Below are positions 1,704 through 18,225 of a DNA stretch of 45,442 bases, piece after piece; the first letter of the stretch is position 1, and each line of letters opens with the position of its first letter. The stretch comes from a virus (Duplodnaviria > Heunggongvirae > Uroviricota > Caudoviricetes), in the IMG/VR virus record IMGVR_UViG_2534681703_000014, positions 1 through 45,442 of that record; one strand, given 5' to 3'. The position numbers and the translations under genes are program-made. The notes beneath the pieces were generated by a model. That model saw nothing but the letters and a program-made list of their open reading frames with translations, did not search any database and was not told where the DNA came from.

Positions 1704-4175
1704 TTAAAAATCAGCCTGACTCGGGATCAGTTTTTGCCAGATAGCTGAAACGTATTTTGCCTGGTAACGAGCGTCATCAAGTGCATTATGGCGCTCACCT
1801 TCGAATGGGATAGCAGTTCTGGCATCGAAGTCTATGGCTTTCCCCAGCTCAACGATTGTGCGTACATCGCGATCGTTGTAGTAACGCCACGGGCAGGGGA
1901 TCCCCTGCCGCTCGTATGAACGGCGCAAAATAGTGTTGTCGAAGTTGGCTCCATTTCCCCAGACCTGAACAAAAAATTCACCGGAGTTTTCGTCGATAAA
2001 TTCCCGCAATTGTAACAGTGCATCATCTAACGGGATTTCATCGGTCATAATGGCAGATTGCGCTTCGCGTGATTGTTTAAGCCACCATTTAATGGTGTCC
2101 CGATCAATGACTCCGCCAGCAGTTTCCAGATCGATAGTCTTACTAAATTCCGGTCCCATATCTCCGGTTTGCGGATCGAAAAATATTGCACCTATTGAGA
2201 TAATCGGGGCATCGGGATTTTTTCCCATGGTTTCAAGGTCGATCATCAGATGAATCCCCGCTCTGCTGGTGGATGTGAGATTATGATGACCGTTCGCCTT
2301 AATTAAGGGATCTGACGCCTCGCCAGTTTCACTATCGCTGGCATGATGCTGATTGCCGCCAGTGTTCTCCTTGTGCTGATGCGCAGTGCCTTCCATTTCC
2401 TCCGGATCATTTTCCTGAACTTCAGGCTGATTCTCTCCATCGAATATTTCCTGGTATGTTGCGTCACCCATCACCGCACCACAATCAGGGCAGTTGCCGC
2501 CACCGCTCTGACCGCAGGCGGTGCAGATCTTTTCCGGTTCCTGTTGCACTACTGGTTCAGGTTGTTTCGTTTCTGGCTCGTTTTGTTGCGTATTTTGGCT
2601 GTTTTGTTCCGCTTTCTGGTCGTTCTGTTCCGTTTCTTGCTGGTTCTGGTTCGCAGAATCGCGGGTCTGGATCCCCTTAACCCATTTCGGATCATTCGGG
2701 TCGCTAATCCCTTCAACAAATTCACCACGTGATACTGCAAGCAGTTCATCGGCGTCAGGCTGGCTGATATTGGCTGCCTGCATAATTTTGTTTACTTCGT
2801 CAGCGGTAACTTTTACCGGTTCTGGCTGTGCGGTCGTGTCAGATGCACCAGTATTTTGTTGTGAACCTGAGTATGTACCGTTTTTGCGGGCGAAATATTC
2901 TTCTTTCGTGATTTCAGTAGCCCCTGCAGCCAGTGCCTTATCCAGACCAGAAAGTTTGTTTGCGCGACCGTATTTTTCGCCATCCTTGTCGGTGAAGAGG
3001 AAGTAGAACGGCCCCTCACGCTCTACAGATGGTTCGACTTCCACTTTGCATTCGGTTTTTTCGTTGTCCGGAATTGCCGTTTCCACTGCATCAGTTTCTG
3101 GTACTGGCGACGAGAGAGTATCAGTTGCGCTCTGATTTGTTCCTTCATCTTCAAACACGCCCTTTGTAGTCAGGTATTCAGTAATGTATTTGTTCAGTGC
3201 CACAGGATCTTTGTGAATGTCGATCGGACGTCCACGGACAAGGCCAAAAATAGTCTGGCGGTCGTAGCGAAGGGCATCAGGCTGTTTGCGCATCGATGCC
3301 GAGATACGCTTCCAGTCTTCGCGGTCGTTGTCGATAACTTCATTTTTTGCCCAGCGATGGATGCTGCCGTCAATGTTTCCGGCATCCACATCACCAGGCC
3401 AGAGAGCGTAGGCCAGTTCGTCATCCAGTGTTTTCCATGTCTGCTTGTATTCGCGATGAATGACTGCAGTGACAGGGGAGATATTTTCTGCTGAGTTTTC
3501 AGTGTGCTGTCGGTTGACTCTGGCGCGGGCGAGATCAACAGCAGACGTGTATTTTCCGGTTTCCTTGCGTTCACCTTCGCGACGTTTTTTCCAGATGCGC
3601 ATCTCTGCCTGAATTTCGGGCCATTTAGCTCCAGGCTTACATTTATGCTTAACCCACCCGATGGCATGCAACTTAAGTTCTGGATACATGGCGTTAACTT
3701 CTGGCATTTTCATCAACGCTTCAACGATATGTCCGTCGAATGTTGCCATGTCTTCCTGCAACAATTCCTGCGCGCTAATCACCATATCAACGGTGATGTT
3801 TTCACATGTGTCGAACTTAACCATGACAGCGTTCTGTACTTCAGGGGCCAGCTTGTCAAAAGTGACGTTCATCGGATCTGATTCAGTCTCAACCGGGACA
3901 AAGGAAGCAGACTCCTCATCCCAGCGGTTTTCCTGCATATATTCAGCATCCCAGGAATCGAGGGCAGGGCGGGGTATACCGGGTTTATCCTCGCAAACAA
4001 GAAATTTATAAGCGCAGTCCTGAGCAGCCGGATATTGCTCCAGGAATTGCCAGGTAAATTTGGCACGGGCGCGGCGTTCGTCACCGGCTTCAATGGCAGT
4101 GGCTACAGCAACTGCACCTTCTTCCTTTATTGCCTGTTCGTCCGGAATGGCAGCGCAAATAAAGACTTTACTCAT
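1704..4175 (-). CDS. Prophage exonuclease, 823 aa, with C-terminal DnaQ-like (DEDDh) 3'-5' exonuclease domain
   Basis: C-terminal motifs MIDLETMG ... HNALDDA fit the DnaQ/RNase T fold; central Q/N/E-rich low-complexity linker; position matches the exo slot of lambdoid early-left operons. Confidence 0.8.
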   Translation of the reverse strand: MSKVFICAAIPDEQAIKEEGAVAVATAIEAGDERRARAKFTWQFLEQYPAAQDCAYKFLVCEDKPGIPRPALDSWDAEYMQENRWDEESASFVPVETESDPMNVTFDKLAPEVQNAVMVKFDTCENITVDMVISAQELLQEDMATFDGHIVEALMKMPEVNAMYPELKLHAIGWVKHKCKPGAKWPEIQAEMRIWKKRREGERKETGKYTSAVDLARARVNRQHTENSAENISPVTAVIHREYKQTWKTLDDELAYALWPGDVDAGNIDGSIHRWAKNEVIDNDREDWKRISASMRKQPDALRYDRQTIFGLVRGRPIDIHKDPVALNKYITEYLTTKGVFEDEGTNQSATDTLSSPVPETDAVETAIPDNEKTECKVEVEPSVEREGPFYFLFTDKDGEKYGRANKLSGLDKALAAGATEITKEEYFARKNGTYSGSQQNTGASDTTAQPEPVKVTADEVNKIMQAANISQPDADELLAVSRGEFVEGISDPNDPKWVKGIQTRDSANQNQQETEQNDQKAEQNSQNTQQNEPETKQPEPVVQQEPEKICTACGQSGGGNCPDCGAVMGDATYQEIFDGENQPEVQENDPEEMEGTAHQHKENTGGNQHHASDSETGEASDPLIKANGHHNLTSTSRAGIHLMIDLETMGKNPDAPIISIGAIFFDPQTGDMGPEFSKTIDLETAGGVIDRDTIKWWLKQSREAQSAIMTDEIPLDDALLQLREFIDENSGEFFVQVWGNGANFDNTILRRSYERQGIPCPWRYYNDRDVRTIVELGKAIDFDARTAIPFEGERHNALDDARYQAKYVSAIWQKLIPSQADF

Positions 4176-4748: not shown

Positions 4749-5204
4749 TGTTTTTGGTTTTAACTGTTCCGCGTGCGCTTAGCCGCATTCACCGCATCAC
4801 AAAATTCACTTTAAAAAGGGCGGCAGAGCAGTCACGGAGTAAAACTGATACCGCTAAACGCCACCAGAAAATTGATAACAGAGGGCGTTGCAGCGGGGTT
4901 GTCACTTAAGCGTATGGTCAACCTGACAACCCGGTGTCCTCAACGGGGAAGGAATAACCCCGCCATACTTACCGCCGCGCCATTTCGCGGATTGCCACAA
5001 CCGGAAGCGCACGGTCGACGAAAATTTAACGACAGGCTATCTATGAACCAGCAACCTCGCCGTGCGCTTTCGCGTTATGCTCTGACTTTTCAGAGAAATA
5101 TCCTTTCAGTAAACTGTCAGTACCGGATGCTCACCCGTGTCCGGCGCACGCACTCCACCTCACCCGTGGAGAACTCCTTAAGTACCAACCCTCAGGATGG
5201 TGAA

Positions 5205-12366: not shown

Positions 12367-12602
12367 TTTTATGGATCACCTTTCTGATTGATTTCATATT
12401 GGCGAGGTAGCAGGAGTTAAGTAGAATTGCTGCGGGTGCTTGAGGCTATCTGTCTCAGGCATGAACACCAAAAGGCAGATAGAGAAAAGCCCCAGTTAAC
12501 ATTACGCGTCCTGCAAGACGCTTAACATTAATCTGAGGCCATATCTATGCGACACATAGAGATTAGCCTCTTACGGACCGAAAGGTCAAGGAGAAGCAGG
12601 CT

Positions 12603-12758
12603 ATGAAGCAGCGAAAGGCGATGTTAATCGCCCTGATCGTCATCTGTTTAACCGTCATAGTGACGGCACTGGTAACGAGGAAAGACCTCTGCGAGGTACG
12701 AATCCGAACCGGCCAGACGGAGGTCGCTGTCTTCACAGCTTACGAACCTGAGGAGTAA
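12603..12758 (+). CDS. hok: Hok/Gef-family type I toxin (51 aa)
   Basis: Translation MKQRKAMLIALIVICLTVIVTALVTRKDLCEVRIRTGQTEVAVFTAYEPEE aligns by eye with Hok ([52 protein letters not shown]); not in the ORF track (under 60 aa). Confidence 0.7.
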   Translation: MKQRKAMLIALIVICLTVIVTALVTRKDLCEVRIRTGQTEVAVFTAYEPEE

Positions 12759-14255: not shown

Positions 14256-14633
14256 ATGACTGAACGCATAGAATTTGTTTTGCCTTACCCGCCAACGGTG
14301 AACACTTACTGGCGACGTCGTGGCAGCACATATTTTGTATCAAAAGCCGGTGAGCGTTATCGCCGTGATGTGGCGCTTATTGTTCGCCAGCAGCGGCTGA
14401 AATTAAACCTGTCCGGAAGGCTGGCGATAAAGGTGATTGCAGAGCCACCGGATAAGCGCCGCCGCGACCTGGACAATATCCTGAAGGCACCACTGGATGC
14501 GCTGACGCATGCCGGACTACTTATAGACGACGAGCAGTTTGATGAAATCAATATTGTGCGCGGTCAGCTCGTTCCTGGTGGGCGGCTGGGCGTGAAGATT
14601 TGCGAAATCAGAGGCGATGGTAATGGGGCGTGA
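14256..14633 (+). CDS. rusA: Holliday junction resolvase RusA
   Basis: RRRDLDN motif and overall similarity to E. coli RusA by recollection; 125 aa. Confidence 0.8.
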   Translation: MTERIEFVLPYPPTVNTYWRRRGSTYFVSKAGERYRRDVALIVRQQRLKLNLSGRLAIKVIAEPPDKRRRDLDNILKAPLDALTHAGLLIDDEQFDEINIVRGQLVPGGRLGVKICEIRGDGNGA

Positions 14634-14973
14634 TATGTATGAGGTTTTAGATCGCTGGGGGGCATGGGCTGCAGCAGAAAATAGCGGTGTCGATTGGCAA
14701 CCGATAGCAGCGGGCTTCAAGGGGCTTTTGCCACATGGCAAAAAGTCACGTCTCCAGTGTGATGATGATGAAGGCATCATGATAGACGGTTGTGTGGCTC
14801 GGTTGCGAAAGTATAAACCAGAGGAATATGAGCTGCTCATAGCTCACTTTGTTATTGGTGTTTCTCTACGCTCAATCGCGAAGAAACGCAGGTGCTCAGA
14901 TGGAACTATAAGAAAGGAGCTGCAAACTGCATTAGGCTTTATTGATGGATGTATATGCTTGATTCTATCATAA
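14617..14973 (+). CDS. Late-gene antiterminator Q (phage 82/QuuD-like)
   Basis: VLDRWGAW...IAAGFKGL...SRLQCDDD...CSDGTIRKELQ closely resembles the QuuD-type Q sequence I recall; overlaps the rusA 3' end. Confidence 0.75.
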   Translation: MVMGRDMYEVLDRWGAWAAAENSGVDWQPIAAGFKGLLPHGKKSRLQCDDDEGIMIDGCVARLRKYKPEEYELLIAHFVIGVSLRSIAKKRRCSDGTIRKELQTALGFIDGCICLILS

Positions 14974-14986
14974 GTTATGACTGTTA

Positions 14987-15373
14987 CTACTCGTTTGCTT
15001 GAGCTTTCGATTCGGCGTCAGATAAAGCATCAATACGAATATTTATGTTTTTTAATAGCTTATTGTCTAGATCGATAAGACATTGGTTGTAGTGCGCAAT
15101 TTGGTCTGGTGTTAGGTTAGGGTTGGCCAGGCAGTTCGTGATGAATTTTCTGGCCGTTTTTATTTCCCTTTTCATTCTTACATCATTAAGCGTAGGCAAA
15201 CCTATGTAAGCGATAAGAAGAATTACCACATGAGATAAGCCGACAGCAGCTCCAGGCGCCAATGATTTGAAGAAGGCTAATTGAGGAAGCCAGTCAAAAA
15301 GGAAATTCAATCCCGCAGTGATAAGGGTGGTAAACCATGCCTGCATTGCCAGGTAGGATTTAGTGTTCGCCAT
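14987..15373 (-). CDS. Unknown membrane protein (128 aa, about 2 predicted TM helices); third gene of antisense 3-gene cassette
   Basis: Hydrophobic segments WFTTLITAGLNFLF and AVGLSHVVILLIAYIGL; start codon directly abuts the stop of the upstream gene; AT-rich. Confidence 0.5.
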   Translation of the reverse strand: MANTKSYLAMQAWFTTLITAGLNFLFDWLPQLAFFKSLAPGAAVGLSHVVILLIAYIGLPTLNDVRMKREIKTARKFITNCLANPNLTPDQIAHYNQCLIDLDNKLLKNINIRIDALSDAESKAQANE

Positions 15374-15619
15374 TCACCTTCCTGCACTTGCTTCGTTGCG
15401 AGTTTTGAGTTCGCGTAGCAGTAGCGCCAACTCTTCTGCGTCATTTTCGTTTCTAACGCTGACTTTCCTTTTAGCGGTTCTGCCTTCAGGATCGGTGTAG
15501 GTTAGTTCAATATACGCATTCGGCTTTACCCAAACCAAGAACCTAAGCACAGCATATCTGACCGTCGCTGCGACAGCCATGAATACAGTGATGTAAAGCA
15601 TAATGCTTAGGATTGACAT
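15374..15619 (-). CDS. Unknown small membrane protein (81 aa, N-terminal TM); second gene of cassette
   Basis: N-terminal hydrophobic ILSIMLYITVFMAVAATV; 3-nt gap to upstream gene stop. Confidence 0.5.
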   Translation of the reverse strand: MSILSIMLYITVFMAVAATVRYAVLRFLVWVKPNAYIELTYTDPEGRTAKRKVSVRNENDAEELALLLRELKTRNEASAGR

Positions 15620-15622
15620 GAT

Positions 15623-16534
15623 TTAAAGTAGTTTCCTATCTGCCGCCGCTCTGTGGCGTATAACCTTAGTAATACTATAGCGTGGTTTAGACAGCGCGCC
15701 ATTTGTTTCTTTTGTTGTTTCTGTCAGTTCTACAACAAAAAGATCACCCTTACAGAATGCTGCTTGGTTGTGTTCAACCCGTTCAAGAAAAGCCTCATCT
15801 TTCATAGATGCACTAACTTCTTCGCCATTTGGCAGGATGATATCCCAGCTTTTGCCTTGCTTGAATCGAACATTAGCAAAATGTACATTAGCTTGGCGTG
15901 TCGTTACGTGCGTTTTCTCGACAAAGGTGGATTTTGCAGTTTTAAAACTTACTGCTTCAGCTTGCGTCACCCTGACTACCTTATGCTTCTGCTGTGAAAC
16001 TGAGAACGTGGATGGTTTTTCAGTCTGCAGGGGTTTATAGATTAATTTATCCAGTTCTTTTCGGATGATTGGACTGGTTATTAATTTTTGAATGTCGTTA
16101 CTGCATTTAACCTTCTCACCATCCACTTCGATTTCTGCTGTATCTTTTTGTTCATCGACGACAATGGAGCTGATTTTACGCCCTTTGAGCCATTCGATTA
16201 TCCCGAGTACGCCACCTGCGGCAACTCCACCACCTGCAACGAGGCCAAGGGCGTTAATAGTTTTTATGCTCCCCATCACAGCAACAAGCAAAGTAAATGA
16301 ACCTTCTTTTGTTGCCTTGATGTTGACTTTCGGCTCTGCTGTTTCGCCATTAATTATTTTTTCGGCGTGTTCAATCAGGGCACTAAGAGAGGTTAAGGCT
16401 TCGCCTAATGTTTTCGCGTCGATCTGATTATCTGCGTATGCCTCTCCACCGTAGGCAATTTCGATTTCTGTTATTGGCATGTTTTCGAGTTGCTGCGTCA
16501 TCAAAAGCATCCTTTGCGCAAGAGAAATAGCCAC
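15623..16534 (-). CDS. Unknown 303-aa protein with central Gly-rich hydrophobic segment and Lys-rich C-terminal domain; first gene of cassette
   Basis: Long ORF; hydrophobic FTLLVAVMGSIKTINALGLVAGGGVAAGGVLGIIEWL near residues 80-115; start uncertain (GTG 16534, ATG 16510 or 16480); no family recognised. Confidence 0.55.
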   Translation of the reverse strand: MAISLAQRMLLMTQQLENMPITEIEIAYGGEAYADNQIDAKTLGEALTSLSALIEHAEKIINGETAEPKVNIKATKEGSFTLLVAVMGSIKTINALGLVAGGGVAAGGVLGIIEWLKGRKISSIVVDEQKDTAEIEVDGEKVKCSNDIQKLITSPIIRKELDKLIYKPLQTEKPSTFSVSQQKHKVVRVTQAEAVSFKTAKSTFVEKTHVTTRQANVHFANVRFKQGKSWDIILPNGEEVSASMKDEAFLERVEHNQAAFCKGDLFVVELTETTKETNGALSKPRYSITKVIRHRAAADRKLL

Positions 16535-16539
16535 AGGAT

Positions 16540-16622
16540 ACAGATAATTATGAAAAAATCACTAACGCGTACGCAAAAACTATCTTAATCTGTTAAGAGT
16601 GGTCGCTTCGCCACACAACTTA
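16540..16622 (+). promoter_or_regulatory. Candidate late promoter (pR'-like) feeding a short terminated leader
   Basis: GATAAT -10-like hexamer near 16570 about 50 nt upstream of an intrinsic terminator, an arrangement reminiscent of lambda pR'/6S RNA/tR'; no convincing -35. Confidence 0.3.
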
Positions 16623-16647
16623 AACCCGCATCAAGCGGGTTTTTTTG
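16623..16647 (+). terminator. Rho-independent terminator (tR'-like) upstream of the tRNA cluster
   Basis: Hairpin CCCGCA-TCAA-GCGGG followed by TTTTTTTT. Confidence 0.6.
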
Positions 16648-16766
16648 TGTCACTTATCTCGGATAGACATGGTGAATGCGCTGGTGGAGGAGATAAGGGT
16701 GATTTTTAACCAGGTGATTTTTGAATGCTTGCAACATTGATTTCGTAACGTTATTATCCTGCGCCC

Positions 16767-16842
16767 GGCCCTTTAGCTCAGTGGTGAGAGCGAGCGACTC
16801 ATAATCGCCAGGTCGCTGGTTCAAATCCAGCAAGGGCCACCA
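16767..16842 (+). tRNA. tRNA with CAU anticodon, resembling E. coli tRNA-Ile2 (ileX-like); Met cannot be excluded
   Basis: Manual cloverleaf: acceptor GGCCCTT/AAGGGCC, D-arm GCTC..GAGC, anticodon loop CTCATAA, T-arm GCTGG-TTCAAAT-CCAGC, 3' ACCA. Confidence 0.85.
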
Positions 16843-16843
16843 A

Positions 16844-16920
16844 CCGCCACTAGCTCATCAGGAAAGAGCGTCAACCCTTTAAGTTGAGTGTGCGAGGTTC
16901 GAGTCCCCGGTGGCGGTCCA
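16844..16920 (+). tRNA. Atypical tRNA-like gene, apparent anticodon UUU (Lys) with C33 and U73
   Basis: Acceptor CCGCCAC/GTGGCGG, D-arm GCTC..GAGC, anticodon stem TCAAC/GTTGA with loop CCTTTAA, T-loop TTCGAGT with one stem mismatch, 3' TCCA. Confidence 0.5.
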
Positions 16921-16922
16921 GT

Positions 16923-16998
<76 letters not shown>

Positions 16999-17001
16999 TA
17001 T

Positions 17002-17076
<75 letters not shown>

Positions 17077-17441
17077 GCATTTGCAACAAGCCTTATTGTA
17101 TTGCGGCACTGGTGTATTTTTTATTACGTGGGAGCAGGTTGTTTTGAAAAAGCATTCTGTTCTCTGGCTATAATTTGAGGCCAGGTGTAGCCTCAGTGCT
17201 GATTTTTTTACGACAGCAGAATGGTGCATTATCGGTGGAGATTTTGTATTTCCTGGCAGGGTCGGTGATGCATCATTCTGGTGTTGTAAATCGCACCAAA
17301 GAGGCGCACCTAAGTGCGAGTGTGGTTTAAAGAGTCGGTTTAGCTGGAAATCACAGTATCCATACAGCACGGAATACTTCGGGAGGCGCCAGACGCCTCG
17401 GTTTAATAACAATTAAAAAATTCATCCCTTGCATTGACCAA

Positions 17442-17465
17442 CCGCCATATCTGGCGGTTTTTTTA
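17442..17465 (+). terminator. Rho-independent terminator in the tRNA-lysis spacer
   Basis: Hairpin CCGCCA-TATC-TGGCGG followed by TTTTTTT. Confidence 0.5.
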
Positions 17466-17832
17466 TTCCTTTCTCATGACGAAAAAAGACACGAGCATCC
17501 AGGAATACTCGTGGGACAACGTCCTTTGGATAGCAATTTGCGAGAGGGTGAAAAGTAGCGCGGTCGTCGGATTAAGACCGCGGGACAAAGTCCATGAAGA
17601 ATAATAAGTATTGGTCCCCTTCCGGGGACATGTTCATACTACTAAGATTCAGAAGTGGTTTAAATCCTCAAATTAACATTAATTTCCGATAAGTCTTATT
17701 TCATTTCTTTGCGCCACATCTGGCGCGCATCAAATAACGCCACGCAAAGGGCATCTGCGGATGCCGGTGCTTTTGACGGGGTGTTTTTTACGGGCCGCTG
17801 GTGGCCCTTTTTTATTTACAGGAGAAAAAAGT

Positions 17833-18225
17833 ATGTCTGAACCCTTATCCGGTTCCGGCACGGCTGCGGCGCTCGGCGGGGCGACGGTGTACGGGCTGTT
17901 TACCGGGACGGATTTCGGGATTGTGTTTGGTGCGTTCGCCGGTGCGTTATTTGTGGCAACGATGCCGCAGGCGCTTTCAGCCTGGCGTGTGGCGGCGCAT
18001 TTTCTGGTGTCGTTCATTATCGGCGTGCTGGGGGCAGAGGTTCTGGCGTCCTGGCTGGTAAAGCATACAGGGTTTGACGGTGCACCTGTCGACGCACTGT
18101 GTGCAGTGCTGGTGTCAGTGGTGTCGGTGAAGATTCTGTCGTTCATCCACCAGCAGGATATTGCATCACTGGTGTCCGGTGTGTTCTCCCGCCTGCGGGG
18201 CGGAGGAGGCGGCAATGTTAAGTAA
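17833..18225 (+). CDS. Putative holin (131 aa, multiple TM segments)
   Basis: ATG 17833 with AGGAGA SD; hydrophobic Gly/Ala-rich TM segments; first gene of the lysis cassette ahead of the endolysin. Confidence 0.55.
   Translation: MSEPLSGSGTAAALGGATVYGLFTGTDFGIVFGAFAGALFVATMPQALSAWRVAAHFLVSFIIGVLGAEVLASWLVKHTGFDGAPVDALCAVLVSVVSVKILSFIHQQDIASLVSGVFSRLRGGGGGNVK

Follow-up and report, generated by a model that had tools for sequence, protein, structure and literature searches.

A conserved, mosaic non-coding module with a predicted minus-strand small-RNA gene between the tRNA genes and the holin gene of a lambdoid Escherichia coli prophage

OOP (against cII), the anti-Q RNA PaQ and Sar of phage P22 (against ant) are short RNAs that are constitutively promoted, end at a terminator and run against a phage operon. 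On the tRNA side, the 3' external transcribed spacer (3'ETS) of glyW-cysT-leuZ is a tRNA-operon trailer that acts as a sponge of small RNAs (sRNAs). Lambda 6S, LPR2 and StxS are small RNAs of the late-operon leader, associated with Hfq and tied to the control of antitermination (PMC7547250; bioRxiv 10.1101/2024.10.31.621285), and PMC2629481 also cites Sar and the Q antisense RNA. Here we analyse the 756-bp spacer (17077–17832) that lies between the end of the last tRNA gene (17076) and the start of the holin gene (17833) in a lambdoid prophage of E. coli, IMG/VR record IMGVR_UViG_2534681703_000014, whose full 45,442 nucleotides we call the window. By its sequence, this spacer is a conserved, mosaic, non-coding module and not the scar of a cargo gene. 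We give a probability of about 0.6 to an architecture of three parts: a plus-strand trailer of the tRNA operon ending at a terminator (T1), a real minus-strand small-RNA gene, and a plus-strand segment before the holin gene that ends at a second terminator (T2).

The predicted small RNA belongs with the phage and prophage small or antisense RNAs, and none of the leader or antisense RNAs compared here is homologous to it or independently promoted between tRNAs and holin. It occupies the same neighbourhood as lambda 6S, LPR2 and StxS, which in lambdoid phages is the interval from Q or pR' to the genes for lysis or toxin, but those RNAs are sense products of pR' that end at tR', whereas the spacer RNA would be read from the opposite strand, from its own promoter and downstream of the tRNAs; no sequence similarity of the spacer to lambda or to most Stx phages was found. 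Like OOP, PaQ and Sar, it is predicted to run against a phage operon, yet it lies in a lysis leader, has no homology to them and overlaps an untranslated leader instead of a coding region, with a putative antisense effect. In the hok/sok system, too, the message for a protein that damages membranes has an antisense RNA complementary to its leader, but the Rfam sok model does not match the spacer, the holin is not of Hok type and neither fold-back nor mok-like features are present. T1 and T2 are terminators of an ordinary kind whose arrangement is informative. They resemble tR' and Q-sensitive terminators in having a GC stem and a U-tract, in lying between a constitutive promoter and the late genes, and in standing downstream of the Q gene; unlike tR', they follow a tRNA operon with its own promoter, and must therefore also stop transcription that does not come from pR', while their read-through under Q is presumed. 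Finally, the trailer is, like the glyW-cysT-leuZ 3'ETS, a non-coding RNA that is transcribed together with tRNAs and set free when these are processed, but it is not homologous, is much longer (~390 nt) and is highly structured.

A first-pass annotation made from the sequence alone had described the region as poor in open reading frames (ORFs) and rich in hairpins, with boundaries that agree with the tRNA end and the holin start. Both descriptions hold. The longest plus-strand ORF wholly within the spacer has 56 amino acids and a TTG start, and a 154-amino-acid ORF at 17761–18225 is only an upstream extension of the holin frame, whose real ATG is at 17833. Seven terminator-like sites were found, compared with 0.8 ± 1.1 after dinucleotide shuffling of these 756 nt, and the fold of the whole region departs from shuffles with z = −5.5 on the plus strand and −4.8 on the minus strand. 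The two hairpins named in that annotation are both present, T1 at 17440–17459 followed by U7 and T2 at 17792–17807 followed by U6, 20 nt 5' of the holin Shine–Dalgarno (SD) sequence. To follow the region across relatives, 126 loci were collected, 48 of them distinct full-length homologs, and the folding of these assigns a strand to most segments, as follows (MFE, minimum free energy).

17077–17206: plus strand favoured in 48 of 48 homologs; MFE −42 versus −22 kcal/mol
17207–17290: long hairpin, plus strand favoured in 48 of 48; MFE −43 versus −20 kcal/mol, z = −8.0
17291–17439: linker, no bias; structure no better than chance, z about 0 on both strands
17480–17630: minus strand favoured in 42 of 48
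17631–17705: promoter gap, no bias; unstructured
17706–17815: plus strand favoured in 44 of 48

The suggestion of a structured non-coding RNA is supported on the plus strand for the trailer (17077–17300) and for 17706–17815; the most gene-like element, on the minus strand at 17700–17480, had been missed. This element reads like a complete promoter-to-terminator gene for a small RNA, predicted to be transcribed against the late operon, with the following parts.

17665–17700, minus strand: upstream region with the perfect palindrome AAATTAA-CA-TTAATTT (17670–17685); conserved, unstructured
17636–17664, minus strand: predicted sigma-70 promoter, −35 TTTAAA at 17664–17659, 17-nt spacer, −10 TAGTAT at 17641–17636, transcription start site (TSS) at ~17629; from a position weight matrix (PWM) scan and an alignment of 68 variants
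17550–17629, minus strand: small-RNA body in its short form of ~80 nt, with three stem-loops; MFE −27 kcal/mol, z = −3.8
17629–17614, minus strand: stem-loop 1 (SL1), the 5' stem-loop at the predicted TSS
17613–17594, minus strand: single-stranded stretch of 20 nt, CCAAUACUUAUUAUUCUUCAU
17593–17583, minus strand: stem-loop 2 (SL2)
17582–17559, minus strand: stem-loop 3 (SL3), with a U-rich tail at 17558–17550
17480–17513, minus strand: distal terminator, hairpin 17513→17490 (10-pair stem plus UCUUUUUU) followed by UCUUUUUUCG (17489→17480)

The promoter hexamers are conserved selectively: 3 of their 12 alignment columns vary, compared with 17 of 23 in the spacer and discriminator (Fisher p = 0.011). 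The −10 is TAATAT in divergent homologs and TAATAT or TATGAT in relatives, which raises the match to the consensus to 9 of 12. In one locus (L036), the promoter spacer, SL1 and the single-stranded stretch have diverged almost completely, and the hexamers, their 17-nt spacing and the 3' domain are kept. Upstream, position ~17700 is both the start of homology with a paralog in K-12 (below) and a deletion boundary in strain E66. The palindrome at 17670–17685 may be an UP element or the site of a regulator; no second copy was found within the window, and hence no operator link.

RNAalifold, run de novo, recovered the same three stem-loops, starting at the predicted TSS, and left the promoter unpaired. 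Among 33 distinct sequences, 96.4% of the cells in the paired columns can pair, compared with 41–54% in slid controls; four pairs carry double changes, and none of 500 shuffles reached the observed covariation score. The covariation is strand-specific. In SL1, pair 45–59 is U·G in 17 of the 33 sequences and U·A in 15, and the U·G would be C·A on the plus strand; in the distal hairpin, a given pair reads U·G on the minus and C·A on the plus strand in 39 of 48 homologs. Two pairs of the distal hairpin have double changes in 16 cells, which none of 300 shuffles equalled. This hairpin is predicted to end a long form of ~150 nt. At both SL3 and the distal hairpin, T-runs are found on the minus-strand side only, so that the hairpins at 17559–17582 and 17490–17513 cannot serve the late operon. 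The single-stranded stretch has a non-consensus fraction of 0.117, compared with 0.162 in SL1. A 3' terminator hairpin together with an accessible stretch fits the plan of an Hfq-dependent sRNA, with a short U-tail in the window and no target found, the one candidate examined being the holin start region.

A 45-nt match in an O103:H2 genome led to a second copy of this cassette, in the intergenic region between yodB and serU of the core genome:

K-12 MG1655 NC_000913.3 ~2,043,020–2,043,181 (L131 2020–2182 and L130 1385–1547 in our locus set), plus strand: paralog cassette

This locus is present in 5,418 of 5,426 E. coli genomes (99.9%). The K-12 copy reads, in order, AGGTTAATTT, TTTAAA, a 17-nt spacer, TATGAT, a different 5' half and then AUGGACUUUGUCC-CGCGGCUUUAAUCUGACGGCCGCG-UUCCUUUUUU. 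It is a true sequence homolog of the minus-strand cassette, with homology that runs from about −72 to −10, resumes at SL2 and SL3 and ends right after the U-run; the upstream element, the −35, the spacing, the −10 and the 3' scaffold are common to both. Both hexamers and their spacing are thus kept in K-12 although the spacer and the RNA 5' half differ. The two RNAs also share a plan of a 5' hairpin, a single-stranded stretch and two 3' hairpins, and they differ in that the 5' 45 nt are unrelated and that the K-12 copy lies in the core genome, antisense to no operon. We had predicted its 3' end at ~2,043,181, directly after the U-run, and a Term-seq 'orphan' 3' end of exactly this sequence is reported at 2,043,181 (plus strand), in two sections of the table (PMC7815308 suppl. 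1). The region also appears as 'yodB.serU.IGR' in chimeras from the sequencing of ligated interacting RNAs (RIL-seq) on Hfq, with 39 and 33 chimeric fragments (PMC8175672 suppl. 1). The paralog therefore provides independent support for the cassette as a transcription unit. It is unannotated in RefSeq K-12 and lacks a credible match in Rfam, and a literature search by sequence string and gene name found no paper describing either the phage or the K-12 RNA; never having been named or characterised, the K-12 RNA says nothing yet about function. Between its terminator and serU lie 278 bp (L131 2191–2468; K-12 2,043,190–2,043,467) that are 96% identical to phages ev099, PhiR70_1 and mEp332. They presumably represent attachment-site homology of serU-integrating phages, which would place the core RNA gene directly beside a prophage integration site.

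Several observations weigh against a minus-strand RNA gene in this spacer. The promoter of the window itself matches the consensus at 8 of 12 positions, below the threshold of the scan tool, which listed no promoter in the spacer, and its PWM score of 9.6 bits is lower than the average of the best scores from shuffled sequence (10.4). Among the homologs, SL2 and most of SL3 are invariant, making SL2 uninformative for covariation, and the homologs are closely related and all from Escherichia, so that the covariation rests on few independent events. Most homologs have U6–U9 after SL3 and the window has only CUACUUUUC; the short form may therefore terminate poorly. A candidate pairing of the RNA with the holin start region (−9.7 kcal/mol) was rejected because its energy lies within one standard deviation of the background (−7.3 ± 2.8) and because the RNA stays the same where an unrelated holin follows. 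On the K-12 side, a RIL-seq-based classifier gave the region low sRNA scores of 0.01 and 0.046, with 1–2 partners only (PMC8175672), and the mapped 3' end could belong to a long yodB 3' untranslated region and not to an independent RNA. Judged from gene content, the RNA gene is also not needed for insulation of the lysis genes, as variants such as E66 do without it. A late promoter and Q-binding site were not located, the promoter scan having found no convincing −35/−10 pair in 16535–16649.

Taken with these points, the three-part architecture would make the spacer, within the leader of the late (lysis) operon, a non-coding control region of composite make-up. The sequences show its anatomy and conservation, the strand-specific covariation and the paralogy; that the phage copy is transcribed, how efficiently the terminators act, their dependence on Q and any target of the RNA are inferred, and the following model is worded with that in mind. 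In a lysogen, T1 and T2 would stop polymerases coming from the always-on tRNA promoter, as well as unmodified transcription from the late promoter, before the holin and endolysin genes; a constitutive promoter facing lysis genes would also explain why strong plus-strand terminators are a constant feature of this slot. Upon induction, Q-modified polymerase would read through T1 and T2, as established lambdoid biology suggests. The small RNA would be made independently of Q from its own promoter and run toward T1, so that it converges with the tRNA operon and lies antisense to the late leader. It would most likely be a base-pairing riboregulator that acts through its single-stranded stretch, an Hfq-type prophage 'moron', because the core-genome paralog, with the same promoter and 3' scaffold and a different 5' half, has nothing to be antisense to. 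The paralog thus favours a trans-acting role for the family; that the phage RNA acts mainly in trans we hold tentatively, at somewhat less than an even chance. Being perfectly complementary to the late leader, the phage copy would also pair with transcripts that escape T1. More speculative, and in our view unlikely, is a two-branch E. coli small-RNA family, with a core member beside the serU integration site and a prophage member in the lysis leader that share promoter, upstream site and 3' scaffold and differ in their 5' 'seed' halves. The prophage copy would then answer to the same host signal and RNA-binding protein, redirect or compete with the core circuit and also serve as an antisense lock on holin and endolysin.

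Such a lock could instead be the main function. The small RNA would then be a safety device in cis, like Sok for hok, OOP for cII or Sar for ant: it would pair with leader RNA that has escaped T1, and its transcription would collide with read-through polymerases, so that the messages are cleaved (by RNase III) or aborted ahead of holin translation until, at induction, massive Q-driven transcription overrides the block. The antisense orientation in 125 of 125 loci, in front of either of two unrelated holin families, speaks for this, as do the placing of the RNA, with a tRNA promoter that looks constitutive on one side, lethal genes on the other and T1 and T2 as brackets, and its complementarity to the leader, which is perfect by construction. 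The constant position may, however, come from the block being inherited whole; the paralog in the core genome, which shares promoter and 3' scaffold, faces no operon; and variants without the RNA gene use extra plus-strand terminators instead. Moreover, should T1 and the minus-strand terminators be effective, the two transcripts would overlap only when T1 is read through by Q-modified or leaky transcription, and the overlap would lie ~200 nt upstream of the holin start and also upstream of T2. We regard a lock in cis as the main role as possible but rather doubtful. In a reading that is also doubtful, and compatible with a small-RNA gene, the functional product is the plus-strand trailer (17077–17466), either as a stable sponge or regulator RNA released by RNase P and RNase E, in the manner of the glyW-cysT-leuZ 3'ETS, or through its 35-bp hairpin as a site where RNase III would separate the tRNAs from the lysis mRNA. 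Its structure is very strong and strand-specific, its sequence is 93–99% conserved, the long hairpin accompanies tRNA-Gly even without the other parts of the module, and different families of its first part keep the closing stem and U-run; against this, no Rfam family matches, few pairs have double changes, and linker B is unstructured and replaceable.

The remaining two readings dispense with a separate RNA gene. The first-pass annotation had proposed Q-dependent attenuators of lysis-gene expression. Read as plus-strand terminators in series, these would leave the minus-strand features as chance or as stops for stray antisense transcription. T1 and T2 are indeed canonical, conserved plus-strand terminators downstream of the Q gene, for which the proposal is plausible, and the weak minus-strand promoter match in the window is in its favour. 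The hairpins at 17490–17513 and 17559–17582, by contrast, are terminators of the minus strand by their T-runs and by wobble pairs possible on that strand alone, the promoter hexamers are selectively conserved amid differing sequence in L036 and K-12, and for the K-12 paralog a 3' end has been mapped on the strand predicted. For the spacer as a whole we consider attenuation by itself quite improbable. The same annotation had also raised the scar of a lost cargo gene, and one could add a pseudogene of stx or of another gene, or encoded small proteins. This slot does hold stx2e in phiP27 and TerB and DUF3927 genes in relatives, and ORFs have been annotated in a few genomes by the depositors or by the Prokaryotic Genome Annotation Pipeline (PGAP), one of 132 amino acids in ETEC4085 and two in vB_EcoS-683R6. 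Yet sensitive blastn against 50,697 phage records returned homologous spacers only, with no remnant of stx or of a protein in any frame; six-frame translations of the spacer had no match in Pfam or PHROG; and conservation of the segment as a unit extends over hundreds of genomes. Where ORFs have been annotated, they pass through terminators (the one in ETEC4085 through T1). Eight ORFs followed across the 48 homologs were each broken in most of them and none was conserved; a 115-amino-acid minus-strand ORF (17065–17412), for example, is intact in 2 of 48. Substitutions show no three-base periodicity, and the synonymous/non-synonymous counts do not differ from one frame to another. The best candidate, a 32-amino-acid plus-strand ORF at 17594–17692, has frameshifts or stops in 15 of 68 variants and a synonymous/non-synonymous count of 16/61, the value found out of frame, and was discarded. 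A scar or coding role is accordingly very improbable.

Folding with covariation thus identified strand-specific helices, and the search for known RNA families found none in the spacer: a scan of the whole window with Rfam 15 at gathering thresholds matched only tRNAs, sok and DicF, all outside it; a scan of 16550–17900 at E ≤ 10 gave only chance-level, terminator-driven matches; and a scan of 17470–17700 at E ≤ 10 gave none. The two non-tRNA matches lie elsewhere in the prophage, a sok antitoxin RNA of a hokD-type locus at 12434–12605 (plus strand, 106.7 bits) and a DicF sRNA at 4818–4869 (minus strand, 68.6 bits).

On the plus strand, 17077–17466 is the structured 3' trailer of the tRNA operon, which has its own sigma-70 promoter, and ends at T1; a second plus-strand unit precedes the holin gene.

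17077–17206, plus strand: trailer part A1, a branched structure with closing helix 17104–17111/17194–17201, then a U-run; from folding of the 48 homologs
17207–17290, plus strand: long imperfect hairpin, 27 + 8 bp, many G·U pairs; z = −8.0
17291–17439, plus strand: linker B, no significant structure (z about 0), swapped for unrelated sequence in other variants
17440–17466, plus strand: T1 intrinsic terminator, AACCGCCA-TATC-TGGCGGTT then U7; 8-bp stem, −12.4 kcal/mol, z = −4.9
17706–17791, plus strand: segment E hairpins, including 17711–17726 (T1-like, no U-run) and 17750–17765; plus strand favoured in 44 of 48
17792–17813, plus strand: T2 intrinsic terminator, 5–6 bp and U6, 20 nt upstream of the holin ribosome-binding site; from terminator scans

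The helices of A1 are paired in 98–100% of cases, with compensatory changes in excess of shuffles, and other A1 sequence families retain a closing stem GCACTG...CAGTGC and the T-run. In the long hairpin, 99.5% of cells are paired; G·U cells number 224 and A·C cells 3, and a few pairs have compensatory changes in excess of shuffles. This hairpin is separately mobile, being found after tRNA-Gly in OkiPb01704 without the rest of the module; we infer a possible role in RNase III processing or as a stability element. A plus-strand promoter candidate within the trailer (TTGAAA-19-TATAAT, 17144–17174) scored highly and was set aside for its 19-nt spacer and non-conserved −35. The T1 stem and U-run are retained in all architectures and the loop varies freely, as expected of a terminator. 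The 5' arm of T1 with its flank (ACCAACCGCCA, 17437–17447) is identical to the junction between the CCA end of the first tRNA and the 5' acceptor arm of tRNA-Lys (16839–16849), and its 3' arm, TGGCGGT, equals the 3' acceptor arm of tRNA-Lys (16903–16920). By sequence, T1 looks like a tRNA-Lys gene whose interior has been deleted, leaving a minihelix and U-run.

In segment E, the hairpin at 17711–17726 has three covarying pairs (0 of 300 shuffles), with G·U variants that fit the plus strand only. It is 93% identical to the T1 core (17443–17456) and lacks a U-run, so that the small-RNA cassette is flanked by direct repeats of a hairpin. T2 was conserved in all of the first 10 homologs and also occurs in phiP27 and in an Stx2k phage, where it lies 3' of the toxin genes. 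A T-box-like interaction between T2 and a tRNA 3' end was dismissed, the complementarity being at chance level for the number of comparisons made.

To assess the distribution of the module, we searched complete E. coli genomes. Part of the spacer is present in 439 of 5,426, and 215 hold at least 80% of it at 77–99% identity, almost always unannotated by PGAP; among deposited phages, SerU-LTIIb and vB_EcoS-683R6 carry it. BLAST comparisons indicate that its blocks, namely the trailer with the long hairpin (17077–17298), the linker, T1, 17480–17700 and the pre-holin segment (17706–17832), have been lost, replaced or separated independently. In all 125 loci that entered this comparison, the small-RNA gene is antisense to the late operon and lies between a same-strand tRNA gene (mostly Gly-UCC) and the holin gene. 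The downstream holin is of the PF16931 type in 73 loci and of the EssD/S type in 43, two unrelated families. A plus-strand intrinsic terminator is always present between the tRNA and the small-RNA 3' end, even in the shortest arrangement of 87 nt, which points to two convergent units that end back to back. Strain E66 lacks exactly 17295–17698 and has two tandem plus-strand terminators followed by T2, indicating that the small-RNA cassette is an insertion/deletion unit that is dispensable for insulation. A looser, second pattern scan of IMG/VR recovered the same loci again, and a genome scan with one genome per species found only E. ruysiae; the phage-borne family thus looks restricted to Escherichia.

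The first-pass annotation had placed the spacer at the position of stxAB in Stx phages, and this holds for the gene order of phiP27: methylase, tRNAs, stx2e and then the same T2/holin segment. Stx2a phage 1447 has the same layout of Q, reverse-oriented genes and leader, followed by methylase, tRNAs and stx2. Given these two gene orders, the spacer occupies the toxin-cargo slot of its relatives. Other relatives carry a TerB-family gene (141 amino acids) and a DUF3927 gene (50 amino acids) between the small-RNA promoter region and T2 (L111 700–1377; L129 2859–3445), and in OkiPb01704 the TerB and DUF3927 genes lie directly 3' of the long hairpin, together with an IraM-like gene. Cargo insertions in relatives begin at ~17734, just past the T1-like hairpin at 17711–17726.

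The genes and signals around the spacer place it in the late region of the prophage.

14617–14973, plus strand: Q-family late antiterminator gene, 118 amino acids; Pfam PF06530 Phage_antitermQ, E = 3.7e-45
14987–16534, minus strand: three reverse-oriented genes (128, 81 and 303 amino acids) that separate the Q gene from the late leader
16535–16649, plus strand: probable late-promoter leader, ending in an intrinsic terminator; from a terminator scan and similarity to Stx phages
16729–16757, plus strand: tRNA-operon promoter TTGCAA-17-TATTAT, ending 9 nt before the first tRNA; from promoter scans
16767–17076, plus strand: four tRNA genes, CAU (Met/Ile2), Lys-UUU, Thr-UGU and Gly-UCC; ARAGORN and Rfam tRNA
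17820–18225, plus strand: holin gene with SD AGGAG at 17820–17824 and ATG at 17833; Pfam PF16931 Phage_holin_8, E = 7.7e-22

The leader at 16535–16649 is ~81% identical to the segment that follows Q and the reverse-oriented genes in Stx2a and Stx1a phages, and the terminator scan places in it a hairpin at 16622–16642 followed by U7 (terminator 16622–16646). From its position, it is the putative equivalent of pR'/tR'. In phage Sp5, Sy et al. mapped the primary TSS that drives the tRNAs, and they showed pR' to be constitutive and terminated in lysogens (PMC7547250). The tRNA promoter of the window recurs in phiP27, Stx2a_1447, OkiPb01704 and E66, with an invariant −10 (TATTAT), a −35 kept as TTGCAx and unrelated upstream DNA. 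Weak Rfam matches to isrK, Hrs10 and leader families at 16569–16651 were terminator-driven and not used. The stretch equivalent to a plus-strand ORF at 16599–16709 is annotated by PGAP in a related genome as a 36-amino-acid 'antiterminator' (WP_099524307.1); this ORF passes through the terminator at 16622–16646, and the call, made on what would be late-leader RNA, is probably spurious. None of the three reverse-oriented proteins (14987–16534) matched a Pfam family. A homolog of the 303-amino-acid protein is annotated as 'LAPAL motif-containing putative phage structural protein', and Stx2a phage 1447 has a different pair of reverse-oriented genes at the equivalent spot. The lysis cassette is of the phiP27 type, with the PF16931 holin first, then a second holin (PF05449) and a GH108 endolysin.

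In hundreds of E. coli genomes, this stretch is either blank or filled with spurious 'hypothetical proteins', where the evidence points to a trailer, two terminators and a small-RNA gene. For phage biology, a constitutive tRNA promoter stands directly upstream of lethal lysis genes, and the module offers a testable answer to how they stay silent in a lysogen; it also marks the exact slot into which stx2e and other cargo, such as TerB, are inserted in relatives. For the host, it draws attention to an unannotated promoter-to-terminator cassette of K-12 whose 3' end is already visible as a Term-seq 'orphan'. If both copies are real sRNAs, they would form a core/prophage pair with swapped seeds, a simple system in which to follow the entry of a prophage into host RNA regulation.

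Three individual records stand apart from the general pattern. In an LT-IIb toxin prophage (L001, KU052038.1), the tRNA–spacer–holin unit is duplicated (1273–2031 and 3179–3743): the first copy is complete, with a truncated holin gene after it, and the second is partial (spacer 118–388 and 652–754), without the small-RNA core. The pre-holin segment (T2 and the holin start) is found at 86.5% identity in 'Actinobacillus phage vB_Apl-pPE4' (PP818812.1 18165–18262), an unexpected match under a Pasteurellaceae label that may reflect shared lysis cassettes or a mislabelled host. The small-RNA region, otherwise absent from K-12 strains, is present in a 4.83-Mb genome labelled 'DH5alpha' (NZ_CP026085.1 2580050–2580249), for which the strain label or an extra prophage may merit a check.

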